Source: Escherichia phage JSE. Taken from it: 64,000 bases of DNA. Every line of letters starts with the position of its first letter. Positions within the stretch are counted from its first letter, which is position 1. The notes beneath the pieces were generated by a model. It worked only from the letters and a program-made list of their open reading frames with translations. It searched no databases and had not been told where the DNA came from. The DNA is taken from sequence record EU863408. The stretch is one strand, 5' to 3'. This document shows, piece by piece, positions 9,872-55,510 of this stretch. A program made the position numbers and the translations under genes.

Positions 9872-10684
9872 TCAATCTACGTTAGTTACATAAACTTCTT
9901 GTGTATCAGAAGACTTACCACCTGAACGATCTAGGCAATAGGTCTTATTCAACAGGACGCAGTTTAAATCATTCCGCTTGATAAAGTCAAGGAGATGATC
10001 ATTTACCTTTCCCTTATGATGTGTGACATTACTGATACCAAACCGAAAACCACGCTCCATAATAGATTCTACCCACTGATAGAATTTAATCTCTTCCTCG
10101 TCACTCCAGAACTTATTGTATTCCGCAGAAGTGATAAGGTACGGCGGGTCCAAATAAACGAAATCACCTGGCAAGATCTCGATCTCGTCATAGCGACCAG
10201 ACGTAAAACTGATTCGACCGTCTTTGTTTTCTTCCTTAAAATTCAGGACACGCTCTACCGCGTTTTCGTTAAAAGTCCGGCGACCAAAATTAGCATTAAA
10301 TTCTCCCTTCCTGTTATGGCGGTTAATGTTGCTAAAACTGTGCTGAATCAGAACAAACAGAGATAGCGGATCTGGATTCTCATTATACTTCTTACGGAAT
10401 GCCATGTAAGCGTCTTTATCTTCGCGAGACAAACCATTCTCGGCAATAATCCGCTTGATCGTAGAAACCGGGTCAGGACACTCGTCAATCGCTTTGTACG
10501 CGTCAATTAAGCGGTGATCATAGTCATTAGCCAGCACATCCCCTTCGACGTACAGAGACACGCTCAAGCCGCCACAAAAGGCATCAACAAAGCGGTTATA
10601 GTGCTTAGGGAAATACTTACTAACACCAGGCAATAACTTTTCCTTATTGCCAGTATAGGGAATTAAACCTAATGCTTTCTTCAT
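9872..10684 (-). CDS. dam: DNA adenine methyltransferase Dam (alpha-class, DPPY)
   Basis: NRFVDAFCGGLSVSL motif I and DFVYLDPPYLIT motif IV, YNKFWSDEEE, matching T4 Dam as recalled; start at MKKALG with GAGGAAGGG RBS. Confidence 0.9.
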   Translation of the reverse strand: MKKALGLIPYTGNKEKLLPGVSKYFPKHYNRFVDAFCGGLSVSLYVEGDVLANDYDHRLIDAYKAIDECPDPVSTIKRIIAENGLSREDKDAYMAFRKKYNENPDPLSLFVLIQHSFSNINRHNRKGEFNANFGRRTFNENAVERVLNFKEENKDGRISFTSGRYDEIEILPGDFVYLDPPYLITSAEYNKFWSDEEEIKFYQWVESIMERGFRFGISNVTHHKGKVNDHLLDFIKRNDLNCVLLNKTYCLDRSGGKSSDTQEVYVTNVD

Positions 10685-15931: not shown

Positions 15932-16153
15932 TTAGATGATCTCTGCTTCACCATCCAAGAAGAAAGACCATGTTTTGTTAGGATAGCGAAGCGCCCATGA
16001 TTCGGCAGTTTTAACACCAGTTTCGAACAATTGACGGCTGGTCACTTTAGCCATACCATCTTCGATGGCAACGTTTTCAATAATCATCGGGTACTTAGCG
16101 CCACGCATGAAACCGAAGCCAGCGGAAGATTTGATAATTTTAACAGTTGCCAT
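15932..16153 (-). CDS. Hypothetical protein (73 aa)
   Basis: ATG 16153 after conserved leader AGGAGAATCAAAA. Confidence 0.45.
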   Translation of the reverse strand: MATVKIIKSSAGFGFMRGAKYPMIIENVAIEDGMAKVTSRQLFETGVKTAESWALRYPNKTWSFFLDGEAEII

Positions 16154-44500: not shown

Positions 44501-44680
44501 AACAGCGAATTGTTCCACGGACTTAAAGCAAGCGAACGAAGATTTGCAATGAGTCCACTGTTTGACCAGTCGGCGGTAACATTCTCTATGTTCCGTGAAC
44601 TTGTAGATAAACGGTTGAAGGATAATATAGGGAATCCACGCGATCCGAAGAATCCGACACAGAGGAAAATTAATGGCTAA
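41594..44680 (+). CDS. 7: Baseplate wedge initiator gp7
   Basis: 1028 aa; synteny and size (T4 gp7 ~1030 aa). Confidence 0.85.
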   Translation: MIKAPSVTSLTIEKLSANQAYITWDDVGENFFYFVELAETRTRDGEIIPVDELSWVNLGYTAEQNWFEDKNLFPEYYYKFRVAVAAEGFEQSKWIETEEFQTFKTNAYNFSMMREFNLANEFVKQKFTYDNRDYIKFNTDLIQASLMKEDFVFSPEYANMTNISNYIVVDENFHEIQDHIEKVCIDINRTMLAEMNGVLYLFERFQPIVKVSNDKGQSWKAYKAFNDRVGNPVSRTCVYQSKTTTYVLGYDRIFYGRQARDTRWSADDVRFSDDTITFAKVGDENDLGFDVEVFGVFSRLTGDTTKYAEAMACSDDYLWVGAKDVIRRIRLKNTPVDTVQGSPTFGEKIFDPDVIRVTGNDKAVIQKMDVIDGKLLVFVTGEVKQRYQDPTKPENVVPSDDAGVYLIGSDGLSFQRVFGNTPQEREYIQHGFSNMSTNGDEVFISHYNHHFESILPDPETAAKYELGEAVKYSQEPTYLTDKKIHQTTFRASYDDLRIWELGPQAYYNEADYTWMRRNGVRVWITNDNRPLVVYPEVIYTQEVDTSGILDQNRVNREVYDKGTVTCYLNNVKFEGFKQYASGVMFHKNTGEIIGFYQFNYRVRDQVGVYWKPTNVAFVAELQNQVREVPWVPVHYDREQDPDLRPLLNKMTPDSFLLENENFRKFSEYYLQFLSDGSGTYYNKLKNLIKNKYPREQDAYEYLWSEMNKRNIYADKNKRDAVVRFFESRKSDFYSTKGVEASYKFLFKLLYNEDVEIEVESQAGLEYDIVVSSTNIDEDIVGRTIYTPTGRANVTYLEREYEGGRLRWRVTIHNLIGRFEEGQVIKSEKTAFEGMILVGVRGKELLSSSIDYINRSRSQYTMKIKSALPVSRYANDVMRFVHPVGFGFIGVTLLTMFINSGLSMRHVETIIQSLKNYKFDSGLPSVYPDRVADLDVDGNIKIDPLTGKPLYLTSPTIGEEFPVPPEYDQENSELFHGLKASERRFAMSPLFDQSAVTFSMFRELVDKRLKDNIGNPRDPKNPTQRKING

Positions 44681-45668
44681 TGAAAATAGTGTGATCTATC
44701 GCTCAATCATTACTAGCAAATTCAGAACAGAAAAACTTCTGAACTTCTATAATTCTGTAGGCGATGGAGCAAATCAAATTACAATTTATGGAACGTTTGG
44801 ACGTTCGGAGCCGTGGTCAGAAAACGAAAAAGAGGTGGGCTTTGCCCCACCTTATCCGACCGATTCAACGGCTGGTGTTGTTGACATGTGGACCCATATG
44901 ATGGGGGCGGTTAAGATTAACAAATCACTTCTTGATGCGGTTATCCCTCGTAAAGATTGGGGTGATACCGGACAGGATAACCCGCGCACATTCTTTATCA
45001 ATGACATTGTTGTTGTCAACTCAGCACCATATAACCGAACTGATGTTGGTAGCGGCTGGATGGTGTATCGCGTAACCGATGTTCCTGAACGCGGTTACTG
45101 CTCGATTTCAAGCATTGACGCTAAAGTAGAGTGTTTGAAGTTGGGCGGAAAGTGGACCCCCACTCATGAATCAATTGCGCCACCTGTAGGAAAGGGCGAT
45201 TCTATTGATATGGGTGATGGGTATCGTTGGGAATATCTGTACACAATTCCACCTGATGCGGCGATCAACCGTTGCACCAATGAACATATTGTTGTACCGT
45301 TCCCCGATGAACTGCGACAAGATCCGGCGCGTTGGGGCTATGACAATGTGATCACATGGTATAATGACTATAATCTTCTTTATCGGCTGAAAGTAGTAAC
45401 TTTGCGTTTTCAGGCTTATATGGACTCTGCGCAATTCCCAACTACCGCGTTAGTGGGTAATACTGGTTTCCGTCAGTTAAGCATTATCCTTAACCCATTG
45501 GAAAAGAAAGCACGCCCTAGCGATCCAGACGTTAAAGCGGTCAAAGATAAGTACCGACCGCAAGACTTAGAGCCACACTCAGGCGAAATGATCTACATGG
45601 AAAACCGACAACCTATCGTTCGGTCATTAGATCAAACAGAACTTGTTTCTGTATTGTTTGAGTTCTAA
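44673..45668 (+). CDS. 8: Baseplate wedge protein gp8
   Basis: 331 aa; synteny and size (T4 gp8 334 aa). Confidence 0.85.
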   Translation: MANENSVIYRSIITSKFRTEKLLNFYNSVGDGANQITIYGTFGRSEPWSENEKEVGFAPPYPTDSTAGVVDMWTHMMGAVKINKSLLDAVIPRKDWGDTGQDNPRTFFINDIVVVNSAPYNRTDVGSGWMVYRVTDVPERGYCSISSIDAKVECLKLGGKWTPTHESIAPPVGKGDSIDMGDGYRWEYLYTIPPDAAINRCTNEHIVVPFPDELRQDPARWGYDNVITWYNDYNLLYRLKVVTLRFQAYMDSAQFPTTALVGNTGFRQLSIILNPLEKKARPSDPDVKAVKDKYRPQDLEPHSGEMIYMENRQPIVRSLDQTELVSVLFEF

Positions 45669-45683
45669 GTGTATGATTTTAAA

Positions 45684-45715
45684 AGCCAATTCGAGAGAGT
45701 TGGCTTTTTCCATTT
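45684..45715 (+). terminator. Rho-independent terminator after gene 8 (9 bp stem, GAGA loop, U run)
   Basis: AGCCAAUUC-GAGA-GAGUUGGCU followed by UUUUUCCAUUUUU. Confidence 0.7.
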
Positions 45716-45721
45716 TTGGTG

Positions 45722-45749
45722 TTGACAATCTTATTTGGTAAGGTATAAT
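45722..45749 (+). promoter_or_regulatory. Sigma70-like early promoter TTGACA-16-TATAAT on plus strand inside the late baseplate cluster
   Basis: Consensus hexamers; followed by ACGGAGGATAAATT-ATG. Confidence 0.7.
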
Positions 45750-45778
45750 ACACACATCTAAACAACGGAGGATAAATT

Positions 45779-46036
45779 ATGGCACGTCGTAAATTTACAG
45801 ATAATTGTGAAGCAATTCAGGTATCCCCTTGCGGTTGGGATGTGATCGCGAACGGTGAAAAGATCGGCGAGATCATCGATCATACTCATTCATCACTAGC
45901 CGATTACACCGATGAACTATGGGAGGGTATCAACTTCATGAATGACACTAAACGATTCAAGACTATCGACGAAGCTATCTATTTTGTGTATAATCCAACT
46001 TTCGGTATGTGGGGAACTAGAAAATGGCACGCGTAA
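45779..46036 (+). CDS. Hypothetical protein (85 aa), first gene of inserted early cassette
   Basis: GGAGGA RBS; no recognisable family. Confidence 0.5.
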   Translation: MARRKFTDNCEAIQVSPCGWDVIANGEKIGEIIDHTHSSLADYTDELWEGINFMNDTKRFKTIDEAIYFVYNPTFGMWGTRKWHA

Positions 46037-46356
46037 ATATTAAATTGCATTACACAATGAATAAAGCTAAGTTCCCAATGCAAAAGCATTACTATGGTCT
46101 ACGTGCACAAGATCCTAAACTCTATGGTACTCATTGGTTTTGTAAACATGATAACCAATGGCACACATACGAAGAAATGCATGAGATGATGAAACAGGGT
46201 ATTGAATTTAGTTATTCTAATTATGACCATCGTATAACTTGCATTCGAAAATTGAAACGATGGATTCGTAAGAATCCGCAATTTAAAAACTTTGTGTTCT
46301 TTATGTCTCATGTTTATTTGGGACATAGCGTTACCGTCACAGCAAAGGTTAAATAA
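46024..46356 (+). CDS. Hypothetical protein (110 aa, His/Trp/Tyr-rich)
   Basis: ORF overlapping neighbours by a few nt. Confidence 0.45.
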   Translation: MARVNIKLHYTMNKAKFPMQKHYYGLRAQDPKLYGTHWFCKHDNQWHTYEEMHEMMKQGIEFSYSNYDHRITCIRKLKRWIRKNPQFKNFVFFMSHVYLGHSVTVTAKVK

Positions 46357-47195
46357 TGGCACGACTTTCTAAACAAGAACAAAAATTACACGATCGGGTG
46401 ATGGAGTTGATTAATTCAGATCGCCCATTGACATATGAAGAAAAAGAATTTTGCTATAATAACTATCATGGCGATGGTCTAGGCGGTTCAGGTGCATTCT
46501 TTACCCCAGAAGGGCTTGCATGGGATTTTACCATCGATGCACATTGCACAGGAAAAGTATTAGATCTTTGTGCTGGGATCGGTCGCTTATCTTTTTGTAT
46601 GTTACATCGTTGTAAGCCAGAAAAGATCGTATGCGTCGAACTCAATCCAGAATTTGCGCGGATTGGCAAGAGACTATTACCGGAGGCAGAATGGATCACC
46701 AGCGATGTATTCGAATTTGAGTCAAACGAAAAATTCGATGTGGTGATCAGCAATCCACCTTTCGGGAAAATCAATACAACCGACACAAAGGATGTATTTG
46801 AGTACACTGGCGGCGAATTTGAATTTAAGGTTATGACATTAGGCCAGAAGTTTGCCGATGTAGGTTATTTTATTGTTCCTACTGGTTCCGCTGGTTTTGC
46901 TTATTCCGGCAGACCTTATTATGACGGGAGCATGAAGTCTAATAAATATCTAAAATGGAGCAAACAAACTGGTTTGGTGACTTACGCCGGATGTGGGATC
47001 GATACATCAATCTATCGCGATGAATGGCATAGTACCAACGTTTTAACAGAAGTGGTTGAGGTTCGGTATTACGAGAAAGAAGCTGTAGAAGCGCCTAAAT
47101 CACGTCCTAACGAACAAATAGAAGAAAGTAAGGAGATTACCTTACCGAAACAGGAAAGCGAGTCTGGGACGCTCTCAGATTTGTTTGACATTTAA
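46356..47195 (+). CDS. Orphan DNA methyltransferase, gamma-class (probable N6-adenine), 279 aa
   Basis: AFFTPEG (motif X), VLDLCAGIGRLSF (motif I), DVVISNPPFGK (motif IV) in gamma order X-I-IV. Confidence 0.75.
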   Translation: MARLSKQEQKLHDRVMELINSDRPLTYEEKEFCYNNYHGDGLGGSGAFFTPEGLAWDFTIDAHCTGKVLDLCAGIGRLSFCMLHRCKPEKIVCVELNPEFARIGKRLLPEAEWITSDVFEFESNEKFDVVISNPPFGKINTTDTKDVFEYTGGEFEFKVMTLGQKFADVGYFIVPTGSAGFAYSGRPYYDGSMKSNKYLKWSKQTGLVTYAGCGIDTSIYRDEWHSTNVLTEVVEVRYYEKEAVEAPKSRPNEQIEESKEITLPKQESESGTLSDLFDI

Positions 47196-47200
47196 TTATA

Positions 47201-47226
47201 AGCCGTCCTTGTGGGCGGCTTTTTTG
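47201..47226 (+). terminator. Rho-independent terminator after methyltransferase cassette
   Basis: GCCGUCC-UUGU-GGGCGGC + UUUUUUG. Confidence 0.75.
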
Positions 47227-47235
47227 TATGTATTT

Positions 47236-47243
47236 TATAAATA
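47236..47243 (+). promoter_or_regulatory. T4-type late promoter TATAAATA upstream of gene 9
   Basis: Exact TATAAATA 28 nt upstream of ATG 47271. Confidence 0.7.
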
Positions 47244-47270: not shown

Positions 47271-48125
47271 ATGGCACAAGTTCCAAAGAAAAGAATAGAC
47301 ACAGGTACTGTCGGCAATCCCAGCACCGGGGACATCCTCTATGACGGCGGTAATAAAATTAACGATAACTTTGATTCAATATATGACGCATTTGCTGATC
47401 AACGGTTTAAAGACGTAGACCACGGCGTAGGAAGAATGGTTATTCATGCAACCGGATACTATCAGAAACATCCACGTCAAAGCTACTCTGGTTCCGCTGT
47501 TGAGATTGGGAGTCTACACGATATCGATACAACTCAAGGCGCACTTATTGCTATTCTACCTAAAGCAAAGGTCGGTGAGGGTGTTGTATTCATAAATAGT
47601 AACGGTAGCCTTTCAACGACTACACCGCTCAATATTCGAACTCAAGCAGGTGATTCTATTAGCGGGTATTCCGGTGATGCTACAATAACACAACCATTTT
47701 CAAAAGTCACTGTTTGGTGTACTGCCGTTGAAGGTAGTCGCGTAACATGGCGATTGGGTATCGAAAGTATGTTTACCGATACAACAACGCCATTAGATAA
47801 AACAGTTAACGTAACTGGAGTAGCAACAAACGTTGCTATTGCCGCAAAAACAGAATACGTTTCCATCAAATTATTAACTACCGCTAGCAATACATCCGGT
47901 TCAAAAATGCGTTCAAGTGAAACGCTACTGATGATTGATTCTAAAGCCGGAAAAGTTTATGCGACGGAATATGCAGTTTTGCAGAAGACAGAAGACGAAT
48001 TATACACGGTTCGTTATTTCATCGGTTCCGGCGATAAAGTATATGCAGAGTATAAGGCTACTGGCGAAAATATTCGTTTAGCAGTTAAAGCCGTAGACAC
48101 TATTAAAATCGGGGTTGCTACATGA
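47271..48125 (+). CDS. 9: Baseplate wedge/long tail fiber socket protein gp9
   Basis: 284 aa; synteny and size (T4 gp9 288 aa). Confidence 0.8.
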   Translation: MAQVPKKRIDTGTVGNPSTGDILYDGGNKINDNFDSIYDAFADQRFKDVDHGVGRMVIHATGYYQKHPRQSYSGSAVEIGSLHDIDTTQGALIAILPKAKVGEGVVFINSNGSLSTTTPLNIRTQAGDSISGYSGDATITQPFSKVTVWCTAVEGSRVTWRLGIESMFTDTTTPLDKTVNVTGVATNVAIAAKTEYVSIKLLTTASNTSGSKMRSSETLLMIDSKAGKVYATEYAVLQKTEDELYTVRYFIGSGDKVYAEYKATGENIRLAVKAVDTIKIGVAT

Positions 48126-53800: not shown

Positions 53801-54733
53801 ATGTCAGGATATGTAACCAATAACCCAAGAGAATTAAAAGACGCTATTCTGCGTCGTTTAGGCGCACCAGTAATTAACGTAGAAGTAACAGAAGACCAGA
53901 TTTACGATTGTATTCAGAGAGCATTAGAACTCTATGGGGAATATCATTTCGATGGTGTGAATAAAGGATATAAAGTATTTCGTGTTAGTGCAGAGCAAGC
54001 GCAACACGGGGTATTTGATTTAAGCGATTCTGGAGTATTCGCAGTAACTAAAATAATTCGAACAAACGTAGGTAGCGCGGCTACGATGGATGGTACTGCC
54101 GTTTATCCGTGGTTTACTGACTTTCTGTTGGGTTTAGCGGGTGTAAATGGCGGTTTAGGATCTGGCTGTAGTAAATTTTATGGACCAAATGCAATGGGCG
54201 GTGATCTAGGATATTTCGAACAGCTTATGAGCTATCGAGCCACTATGCAAAATATGCTTAATCCGCTGCCAGATTATTGGTATAATAGCGCAAACGGACA
54301 ACTTAAGATAACAGGAAACTTCCGAGAAGGTGATCTCATTGTTGTTGAATTATATGTTAAAAGTTATGTTGATGTACCTGATATGATCGGCGCGGTTGCT
54401 GGTTATGCTCATGCGGGAGGATGTTCTACCGCTGGCGGGATTAGCGCCGTTTATGATAACCCAACTGCTGGTTTAAGCGGGATTGTTGCTGGCATGGGAC
54501 CGATCCGTGATAACAAGCAGGGCGCATATAATAACCGTTGGGTTAAAGACTGCGCGACTGCGTTTACTCGTGAGCTATGGGGGCAGATCTTAGCTAAACA
54601 TCAAGGGTTGCAATTACCAGGTGGTGTCACTGTTGATGGTGTCAGAATCATCGAAGAAGCACGCGCGGATATTGAGAAATTGCGACAAGAACTACTTGAC
54701 TTAGATCCTCCGTTCGGCATCCTCATGATTTGA
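53801..54733 (+). CDS. 13: Neck protein gp13
   Basis: 310 aa; synteny and size (T4 gp13 309 aa). Confidence 0.8.
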
Positions 54734-54769
54734 TTTATTGGGGGAGTATTCCCCCATTTGGAGTAACAT

Positions 54770-55510
54770 ATGTTTAACAACACTCTTTTTGCTCGCCTTG
54801 AATCGCAAAAGGATTATGAGAATACACGACAAACCGAGATTCTCAATCCTTACGTAAATTTCAACCGTCATACAAACACCCAGACGTTAGCCGACGTTAT
54901 GGTCGCCGAAGCTATTCAGATGCGAGGTGTAGAATTATATTACATCCCTCGTGAATTTGTCAAACCAGATATGATCTTTGGTGAGGATGTTCAAAGCAAA
55001 TTTACTAAAGCATGGAAATTTGCTGCGTATATAAACTCTTTCGACGGGTATGAAGGTGCAGGAAACTTTTTTCAATCTATGGGTTATACGGCAAACGACG
55101 AATTAACGTTTACGGTGAATCCTAACCTATTCAAGCATCAAGTAGATGATCAAGAGCCAAAATCAGGTGACTTGATTTATATTCCAATGAGTAATGATCT
55201 CTTTGAAATTAATTACGTCGAGCCATATCAGCCGTTTTTTCAGGCTGGCAAAAATGCCATGCGTAAAATTATTGCAGAGAAATTTGTGTATAGCGGTGAG
55301 GAATTGCGACCAGAATTACAACGCAATGAGGGAATTAATGTTGATGAGTTTGCGGATCTGGATCTTGCACCGATCACTAATCTGGACGGGTTAACAGATA
55401 TCAACTTAGATCAGTACAAAGAAGATAAGCAATTCAGAAGCGAAGGACAAGATTTTATTGATCCGTTTGATCCTATTAATGGCAAGGGTTCACCTTTCTC
55501 CGATTTTTGA
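54770..55510 (+). CDS. 14: Neck protein gp14
   Basis: 246 aa; synteny and size. Confidence 0.8.

Follow-up and report, generated by a model that had tools for sequence, protein, structure and literature searches.

A candidate clamp-binding tail on an orphan methyltransferase encoded by an early-type cassette between baseplate genes 8 and 9 of a Krischvirus

Why should a gene for a methyltransferase lie behind an early-type promoter among the baseplate genes of a virulent phage, and what might bring its product to newly made phage DNA? The question is raised by a stretch of 64,000 nucleotides (nt) from Escherichia phage JSE (EU863408), hereafter the window. By identity the window is Krischvirus (RB49/Phi1-like): the 1.7 kb surrounding the cassette have matches of 90-99% identity in 57 phage records, all of them Krischvirus (RB49, Phi1 and GEC-3S among them), and phage kaaroe is the best match (98.8%). 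Between genes 8 and 9 lie a terminator, a consensus sigma70 promoter, two small open reading frames (ORFs), a gene for a protein of 279 amino acids (aa) and a second terminator. We regard it as probable, though well short of certain, that the 279-aa protein is a clamp-tethered, replication-coupled orphan DNA methylase belonging to a self-contained early unit. The suggestion rests on its sequence, and above all on its extreme C-terminus. The parts of the gene that matter to the argument are as follows; alignment A1 is composed of 23 homologues of the methylase, AdoMet is S-adenosylmethionine, and pLDDT is the predicted local distance difference test score.

46356..47195, + strand: 279-aa orphan gamma-type amino-methyltransferase (Phi1 ORF143)
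46494..46508, + strand: motif X, AFFTP, aa 47-51, invariant in alignment A1
46557..46595, + strand: motif I, the AdoMet-binding loop VLDLCAGIGRLSF, aa 68-80, with L71, C72, A73, G74, I75 and G76 invariant in A1
46752..46763, + strand: motif IV, the catalytic NPPF, aa 133-136, invariant in A1 and lying within DVVISNPPFGK, aa 128-138
47088..47165, + strand: disordered acidic/Pro-rich linker, aa 245-270, pLDDT < 50, variable in length and sequence among relatives
47169..47192, + strand: C-terminal peptide TLSDLFDI, aa 272-279, candidate gp45 sliding-clamp-binding motif

The AlphaFold (AF2) model has a confident core comprising residues 1-244 (mean pLDDT of the whole protein, 82), while residues 245-279 are predicted to be disordered (pLDDT < 50). 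The disordered stretch ends almost exactly as does the polymerase of the same phages: Phi1 gp43 terminates in ...ASLTDLFDI and the methylase in ...SGTLSDLFDI. When the 1264 stop-delimited frames of Phi1 were scanned against the gp43 tail, the methylase tail scored 32, against a mean of 0.4 (standard deviation 4.7) and a maximum of 20 for the other frames, and it was the sole near-copy among them. Across 56 Krischvirus records gp43 keeps at least 99% identity over its last 40 aa, a stretch that aligns with the end of RB69 gp43. In the methylase it is the linker that differs, the final 9 aa being invariant; relatives end in TLTDLFDI, SLSMFDI or TLDFVDFSEI. In T4 the gp43 tail EKASLDFLFG binds the gp45 clamp (PMC6212786), and the tails of gp43, gp55 and gp33 are interchangeable clamp-binding epitopes carried on flexible linkers (PMC2988020). 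The methylase has both hallmarks of such a client, that is, a hydrophobic/acidic extreme C-terminus like the tail of its own gp43, and an unstructured, variable linker which joins this epitope to the body of the protein.

Four Phi1 frames only end in [LFIMV]DI, namely gp43, the methylase, gp33 and the DprA-like ORF164 (...DLSWLDI; NC_009821 98177-98764). The DNA ligase gp30 (gene 30, Phi1 124133-125629), which ends in ...TVKEVFDV, was fourth in the tail scan. ORF164 and gp30 may be further C-terminal clamp clients; T4 DNA ligase by contrast contacts gp45 through an internal loop and not through its C-terminus.

Clamp-type tails are found in the wider family as well. A HMMER scan with the methylase core alone gave 740 relatives, which yielded 136 cluster representatives with a complete core and 95 tails of at least 8 aa. 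The bacterial beta-clamp motif is QL(S/D)LF (PMC9690074). Within the last 12 aa, 20 of the 95 contain the pattern Q[LFIMV]x[LFIM]F; shuffled tails lead one to expect 0.06, with at most 2 in any of 1000 shuffles, and the pattern was present in none of 31,710 core windows. The shorter pattern [LFIM]F lies within the same 12 aa in 48 tails against 5.9 expected. Beta-type tails include those of a Rhizobium phage (...GQLSLFGDAA), a Pseudomonas aeruginosa megaplasmid (...AQLSLFDAA) and a Labrenzia plasmid (...EQLALL). The tail type follows the carrier: the plasmid and Rhizobium-phage members that were examined are of the beta type, and those of T4-type phages resemble the partners of gp45. We would put at slightly better than even the chance that this orphan methylase family of phages, plasmids and islands constitutes an unrecognised class of sliding-clamp clients, the tail of each being retuned to the clamp that replicates it (QLSLF-type for beta, gp43-like for gp45), with methylation coupled to replication in a manner convergent with Dnmt1-PCNA. 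Two reviews of clamp partners (PMC9690074 among them) name no bacterial or phage methylase, only the eukaryotic Dnmt1-PCNA, and targeted literature searches for a clamp-binding bacterial or phage methylase returned nothing relevant.

Members of the family were found in 285 phage records, in 183 plasmid records and on genomic islands. In one plasmid-like metagenomic contig the gene lies beside ParA, ParB and a relaxase, and in RB43-like phages, KP15-like phages and Mm5 it is placed in the replication module, with gene 41 on one side and gene 61 on the other. The Krischvirus core is 55-61% identical to tail-less enterobacterial chromosomal proteins and 44-50% identical to the methylases of other T4-type phages. 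One homologue, KP15_25 of Klebsiella phage KP15 (GU295964 17138-17914; L007 9001-9777), is annotated as hypothetical; the published search for modification genes in KP15/KP27 reported only Dam and Dcm, and KP15_25 was not counted. There are also fusion members of 366-395 aa in which an extra C-terminal domain of about 115-145 residues replaces the short tail (Dickeya phage JA11, MH389777 198163-199332; P0125, P0131 and P0132).

The core itself is that of a gamma-class enzyme. AFFTP (47-51), DLCAGIG (70-76) and NPPF (133-136) follow one another in the order X-I-IV and are invariant in the 23 homologues, and the predicted fold is that of a class I Rossmann methyltransferase, superposable on M.TaqI, HsdM and MmeI. 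Past the catalytic motifs there are about 95 structured residues (aa 150-244) which match no known target-recognition domain. No restriction nuclease or specificity subunit is encoded beside the gene, its neighbours being gp8, gp9 and the two small ORFs (no Pfam or PADLOC match); the enzyme is an orphan with no cognate nuclease.

The cassette in which the gene resides, its flanks and the second methylase gene of the window are made up as follows.

44673..45668, + strand: gene 8, baseplate wedge subunit, upstream flank (Pfam Phage-Gp8, E 1e-143)
45681..45718, + strand: intrinsic terminator after gene 8, or stem-loop half of an element of the promoter-early stem-loop (PeSL) type; stem 45681-45708 of 12 pairs, T-run to about 45718
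45722..45749, + strand: consensus sigma70 (early) promoter TTGACA-16-TATAAT, 12/12 consensus positions
45767..45771, + strand: Shine-Dalgarno GGAGG of the first ORF, read from the sequence, 7 nt ahead of the ATG
45779..46036, + strand: 85-aa ORF (Phi1 ORF140), phrog_16603, no assigned function
46024..46356, + strand: 110-aa ORF (Phi1 ORF142), phrog_12630, no assigned function
47200..47227, + strand: intrinsic terminator closing the early cassette, a 9-pair GC-rich stem (47200-47221) and T-run
47236..47243, + strand: T4-type late promoter box TATAAATA for gene 9, read from the sequence
47271..48125, + strand: gene 9, baseplate wedge/tail fibre connector, downstream flank (Pfam T4_gp9_10_N, E 4e-40), ATG at 47271
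9872-10684, - strand: dam (Pfam D12-class methyltransferase, E 3e-30)

The upstream terminator folds at -17.3 kcal/mol (z -5.1) and the closing one at -15.9 kcal/mol (z -4.8). The 85- and 110-aa ORFs overlap by 13 nt and the 110- and 279-aa ORFs by TAATG, and all three are translationally coupled. Perfect consensus sigma70 promoters number six in the window, against 0.14 expected; the one in the cassette is the sole + strand site among them and stands within the late structural block. The early promoters of Krischvirus conform to the sigma70 consensus (PMC2839356). Another of the six, TTGACA-18-TATAAT at 54934-54963 (- strand), is also in the late block, antisense inside gene 14 (54770-55510, + strand), where it could yield an antisense transcript or be due to chance.

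A preliminary description of the locus, made from the sequence alone, had listed a terminator, a promoter, two small ORFs, a 279-aa protein and a second terminator, and all of these are there, within a few bases of where it had placed them. Its view that they form an insulated early-promoter cassette between genes 8 and 9 agrees with the terminator, promoter, terminator frame, and the motifs from which it recognised a gamma-class methyltransferase (AFFTP, VLDLCAGIGRLSF and DVVISNPPFGK) do occur in the order X-I-IV. It was also right in listing a separate dam, and it stated that T4 has nothing between genes 8 and 9. In Tequatrovirus RB18, Tulanevirus Aes012 and Slopekvirus KP1 the one gene directly follows the other, and because the gaps there amount to 9-63 nt only, the cassette is, with respect to other T4-type phages, an insertion specific to its lineage. 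At the level of annotation an orphan methylase in an early cassette is thus sound and already known, the unit being annotated in GenBank; the record of GEC-3S already shows the terminator, promoter, terminator frame.

Elsewhere in the late block genes 13 and 14 are adjacent in the window phage (36-nt gap), and in Phi1 the homing endonuclease segC lies between them (window 53801-55510 vs Phi1 82648-84964). Krischvirus has a third "DNA methyltransferase", ORF189, a protein of 238 aa encoded outside the window (Phi1 NC_009821 117297-118013; L005 3027-3743); it has an FPPC motif reminiscent of C5-cytosine enzymes and no Pfam match.

The PeSLs of RB49 and phi1 are mobile regulatory cassettes consisting of a terminator and a consensus promoter which flank variable ORFs (PMC2839356; PMC4122927). 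A few of them sit inside the virion module, and promoter and terminator activity as well as the formation of mini-circles by recombination have been shown experimentally for other PeSLs (PMC2839356). Judged by its sequence, the gene 8/9 cassette fits the published description except in the composition of its stem. A stable intergenic stem-loop ends 13 nt before the -35 box of a near-perfect promoter, after which come a Shine-Dalgarno sequence and a start codon, and the cargo varies among close relatives: the 110-aa ORF has alleles of 100% and 72% identity, and cargo is absent or swapped in two metagenomic relatives (L027 and L032). The stem with a G-run, loop and C-run known from RB49/phi1 PeSLs (PMC4122927) was not found in the cassette, where the stem is AAAAGCCAAUUC/GAGUUGGCUUUU. 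The PeSL papers of RB49/phi1 do not discuss the gene 8/9 cassette itself. Another PeSL promoter touches gene 43: the last codons of this gene, TTT GAC ATT TAA, at the same time provide the -35 box of the next gene's perfect sigma70 promoter, TTGACA-17-TATAAT (Phi1 NC_009821 about 15960-15985; L003, - strand), and the clamp-binding tail of gp43 and the promoter therefore share bases.

How old is the insertion, and do its genes belong together? The preliminary description had taken the cassette for a recently acquired moron and the small ORFs for possible accessory or anti-defence partners of the methylase, and had proposed a comparison of the gene 8-9 junction across related phages. This comparison, now made, speaks against both ideas. 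The cassette occurs in 57 of 57 Krischvirus records at DNA identities of at least 90%, its base composition is unremarkable, and the methylase stands at the same junction in L027 and L032, distant relatives whose gp8 is 88% and 80%, and whose gp9 is 77% and 56%, identical to that of the window; on these grounds we reject a recent horizontal transfer. In both relatives the frame matches that of the window (terminator, sigma70-type promoter, terminator and a similarly placed TATAAATA box). L027 lacks the upstream ORFs, in L032 an unrelated 154-aa ORF takes their place, and no homologue of either small ORF lies beside the RB43-like/KP15-like methylase (CfP1, KP15 and GAP161), so that a partnership with the methylase was likewise discarded. 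As the methylase is kept in L027 and L032 while the upstream ORFs are lost or replaced, it is the constant cargo and the small ORFs are exchangeable passengers.

The small ORFs are instead a separate two-gene module, common to Krischvirus and the rV5-like coliphages (Vequintavirus). The pair recurs in Vequintavirus HMD-6 with an identical 13-nt overlap, behind a terminator and promoter of HMD-6's own and with no methylase annotated beside it; the 85-aa homologue there is 69% identical. Homologues of the 110-aa ORF at 58-59% identity occur in Vequintavirus, for example in MaxBurger and RudolfGeigy. Krischvirus has two alleles of this ORF (100% and about 72% identity; that of RB49 is the divergent one), while the DNA of the flanking genes remains about 95% identical or more. 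Neither small ORF has a significant Pfam, NCBIfam or PADLOC match, the search for homologues gave only five close relatives, and AF2 models the 110-aa protein poorly (pLDDT 62).

The course of events that we envisage for a clamp-tethered methylase would be as follows. The terminator after gene 8 would stop late transcripts, and unmodified host RNA polymerase would read the consensus sigma70 promoter right after infection, giving rise to the three coupled ORFs. The second terminator would keep this early transcription from gene 9, which would use its own late promoter. The enzyme, in this view an orphan gamma-type N6-adenine DNA methyltransferase, would be built of the core (aa 1-244), some 26 aa of flexible linker and TLSDLFDI, a mimic of the C-terminus of the phage polymerase which would fit into the hydrophobic pocket on gp45, the sliding clamp. 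Made early, the methylase would travel with clamps that have been loaded at forks and nicks, methylating nascent phage DNA during replication, and the progeny genomes, with their ordinary cytosine, would exit fully protected against matching restriction systems. A second methylation specificity serving anti-restriction, as put forward in the preliminary description, would be plausible.

Several observations weigh against this proposal. The methylase gene shares its final 14 nt (TGTTTGACATTTAA) with the 3' end of gene 43, and since these overlap the -35 box of the PeSL promoter there, part of the identity of the tails may be historical, a relic of PeSL-mediated recombination and not of selection. 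The tails of the RB43-like and KP15-like methylases, ...(D/N)LFTFTIE, resemble but do not copy their own gp43 tail, SLN(D/T)LFGD.W; that of Morganella phage Mm5, KQINVLEGI, is unlike its gp43 tail, SLTDVFDI; and some T4-type members (Aeromonas phage 65.2) as well as the enterobacterial chromosomal homologues have no tail. Lastly, analysis of the DNA of Krischvirus TB34 by high-performance liquid chromatography/mass spectrometry found "no detectable modified DNA" (PMC13390438). This result speaks against bulk adenine methylation and is compatible with rare, site-specific marks; any methylation would have to be sparse.

The idea that the tails of methylase and gp43 strictly co-vary from one T4-type genus to the next was considered and is only partly borne out: the match holds in Krischvirus, is loose in Slopekvirus/Pseudotevenvirus and is absent in Mm5. 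With regard to modification in general, Krischvirus SAP and TB34 are 99.96% identical, yet the DNA of SAP is reported to contain glucosylated hydroxymethylcytosine and that of TB34 none, with no known pathway genes in either, a difference for which the authors give no explanation (PMC13390438). Literature searches turned up no Krischvirus methylome.

Might the enzyme simply act on DNA unattached? This is what the preliminary description had implied, and protection would then be driven by diffusion, the gp43-like tail being a by-product of PeSL recombination with no part in clamp binding. The 14 identical nt do contain the TTGACA -35 box with its typical flanks, PeSLs lie at the borders of gene 43 (PMC2839356), several family members manage without any tail, and the methylase tail is no copy of that of gp43 in other T4-type genera. 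However, upstream of the shared 14 nt the likeness, T/S-L-S/T-D-L, is at the level of protein and not of DNA, where only 10 of 18 nt are identical, and the last 9 aa are held constant while the linker changes. It is furthermore at odds with free action that unrelated tails in the family have converged on canonical clamp motifs (20/95 vs 0.06 expected), gp45-partner-like in T4-type phages and beta-clamp-like in the plasmid and Rhizobium-phage members examined. We consider free action unlikely, although it deserves serious attention. The tail might, on the other hand, be used to bind the clamp for a different end, as a competitor or timer: early occupancy of the gp45 pocket would modulate polymerase processivity or delay the gp55/gp33-dependent late transcription, and methylation would be secondary. 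The near identity with the gp43 tail would suit this, as would the early promoter ahead of the gene and the finding that the clamp epitopes of T4 can replace one another and compete for shared sites (PMC2988020). Against it, the catalytic motifs are invariant across the family, the combination of tail and methylase recurs on plasmids, which have no late-transcription switch, and a trimeric clamp with three pockets permits a tool-belt arrangement without competition (PMC2988020). We give this explanation very little credence, the least of those considered.

A tethered DNA methylase also presupposes DNA as the substrate, which the fold alone leaves unfixed because the rRNA m6A enzymes METTL5 and PH1948 score like the DNA enzymes in the structural comparison. 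Foldseek against the PDB returned generic Rossmann matches, and sequence and profile searches of the PDB, all with E-values of 4e-4 or weaker, failed to separate DNA from RNA enzymes. Several GenBank records bear a PrmC/HemK label ("release factor glutamine methyltransferase"), and one may imagine an RNA or protein amino-methyltransferase, PrmC/HemK-, RsmC- or METTL5-like, which reprograms host translation. The best Pfam match is indeed MTS (PF05175; E 1e-9, 38.5 bits vs a cut-off of 23), the best NCBIfam matches are PrmC (37.5 bits) and then RsmC, and NPPF is also found in PrmC/RsmC/METTL5-like enzymes. However, the PrmC match (TIGR03534) covers aa 64-137 only and falls far under its cut-off of 199.1 bits, which does not bear out the label, and every RNA/protein equivalog model fails. 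Eco57I on the contrary exceeds its Pfam cut-off (28.6 bits vs 25.3; N6_Mtase, 16.7 vs 20.4, is below), PADLOC gives mad2 and Type II methylase matches, and HsdM, MmeI and PacII are matched both by the N-terminal G-A-F-F-T-P and in alignments that span about 210 residues. The family is distributed over phages, plasmids and islands, one metagenomic homologue being beside ParA/ParB, and tails of the clamp-binding type would be sensible only for an enzyme that tracks DNA. An RNA or protein substrate is therefore improbable in our view. The FFTP motif, the Eco57I and PADLOC matches, the lack of a partner nuclease and the spread over phages, plasmids and islands favour DNA, and the 279-aa protein is most likely an orphan gamma-type amino-methyltransferase acting on it.

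As an orphan methylase moron in a baseplate operon, which is how the preliminary description saw it, the gene would be ordinary and already annotated. The tail of the clamp-binding type, which that description missed, is previously unreported and is the most informative feature of the protein. Were it to bind the clamp, one could understand how a virulent phage whose cytosine is unmodified, and which makes its genome copies within minutes, has every new copy methylated before packaging. DNA methylation would then join the jobs that are organised by prokaryotic and phage sliding clamps, and a methylase bearing a clamp motif would provide a sequence rule for recognising replication-coupled anti-restriction enzymes, including those of large Pseudomonas resistance megaplasmids. 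Such an enzyme could also become a tool for marking newly replicated DNA.

Among known systems, the cassette resembles the PeSLs (Arbiol et al. 2010; Comeau et al. 2014) in its stem-loop terminator and perfect sigma70 promoter, in the variable ORFs downstream, in its location within a conserved module and in the modular exchange of cargo, and departs from them in having a stem flanked by A/T (AAAAGCCAA...TTGGCTTTT) where the RB49/phi1 type has a G-run and C-run. Unlike gamma-class N6-adenine enzymes such as M.TaqI, HsdM and those of Eco57I type, the phage protein has, besides the approximately 95 residues that follow its catalytic motifs, no recognisable TaqI-type target-recognition domain, S subunit or nuclease. 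With T4 Dam and other phage orphan methyltransferases it would share the character of an orphan adenine methylase of a virulent phage, presumably serving anti-restriction; Dam however is of the alpha class (D12 family), and the copy in the window is without a clamp-type tail, ending in ...VYVTNVD.

With respect to its tail, the methylase is like the gp45 clients of T4-type phages (the C-termini of gp43, gp55 and gp33) in having a hydrophobic/acidic peptide at the end of a variable flexible linker, and unlike them in that the published lists of gp45 ligands (PMC2988020, PMC6212786) contain no methyltransferase. The window methylase has no beta-type motif; its plasmid, island and Rhizobium-phage homologues, ending in QLSLF, QLTLF, QLALF or QLDLF after long disordered linkers, are in this respect like such beta-clamp clients as Pol II/IV/V, MutS, Hda and transposases. 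The closest parallel to the proposed function is Dnmt1-PCNA. There is no homology between them: Dnmt1 belongs to the C5-cytosine enzymes and binds PCNA through an N-terminal PCNA-interacting peptide (PIP) box, whereas the phage protein is a small gamma-type enzyme with a C-terminal tail, the putative target of which is gp45 (for its homologues, the beta clamp). Yet each, if our proposal holds, would be a DNA methyltransferase which uses a short clamp-binding motif in methylating newly replicated DNA (PMC9690074).

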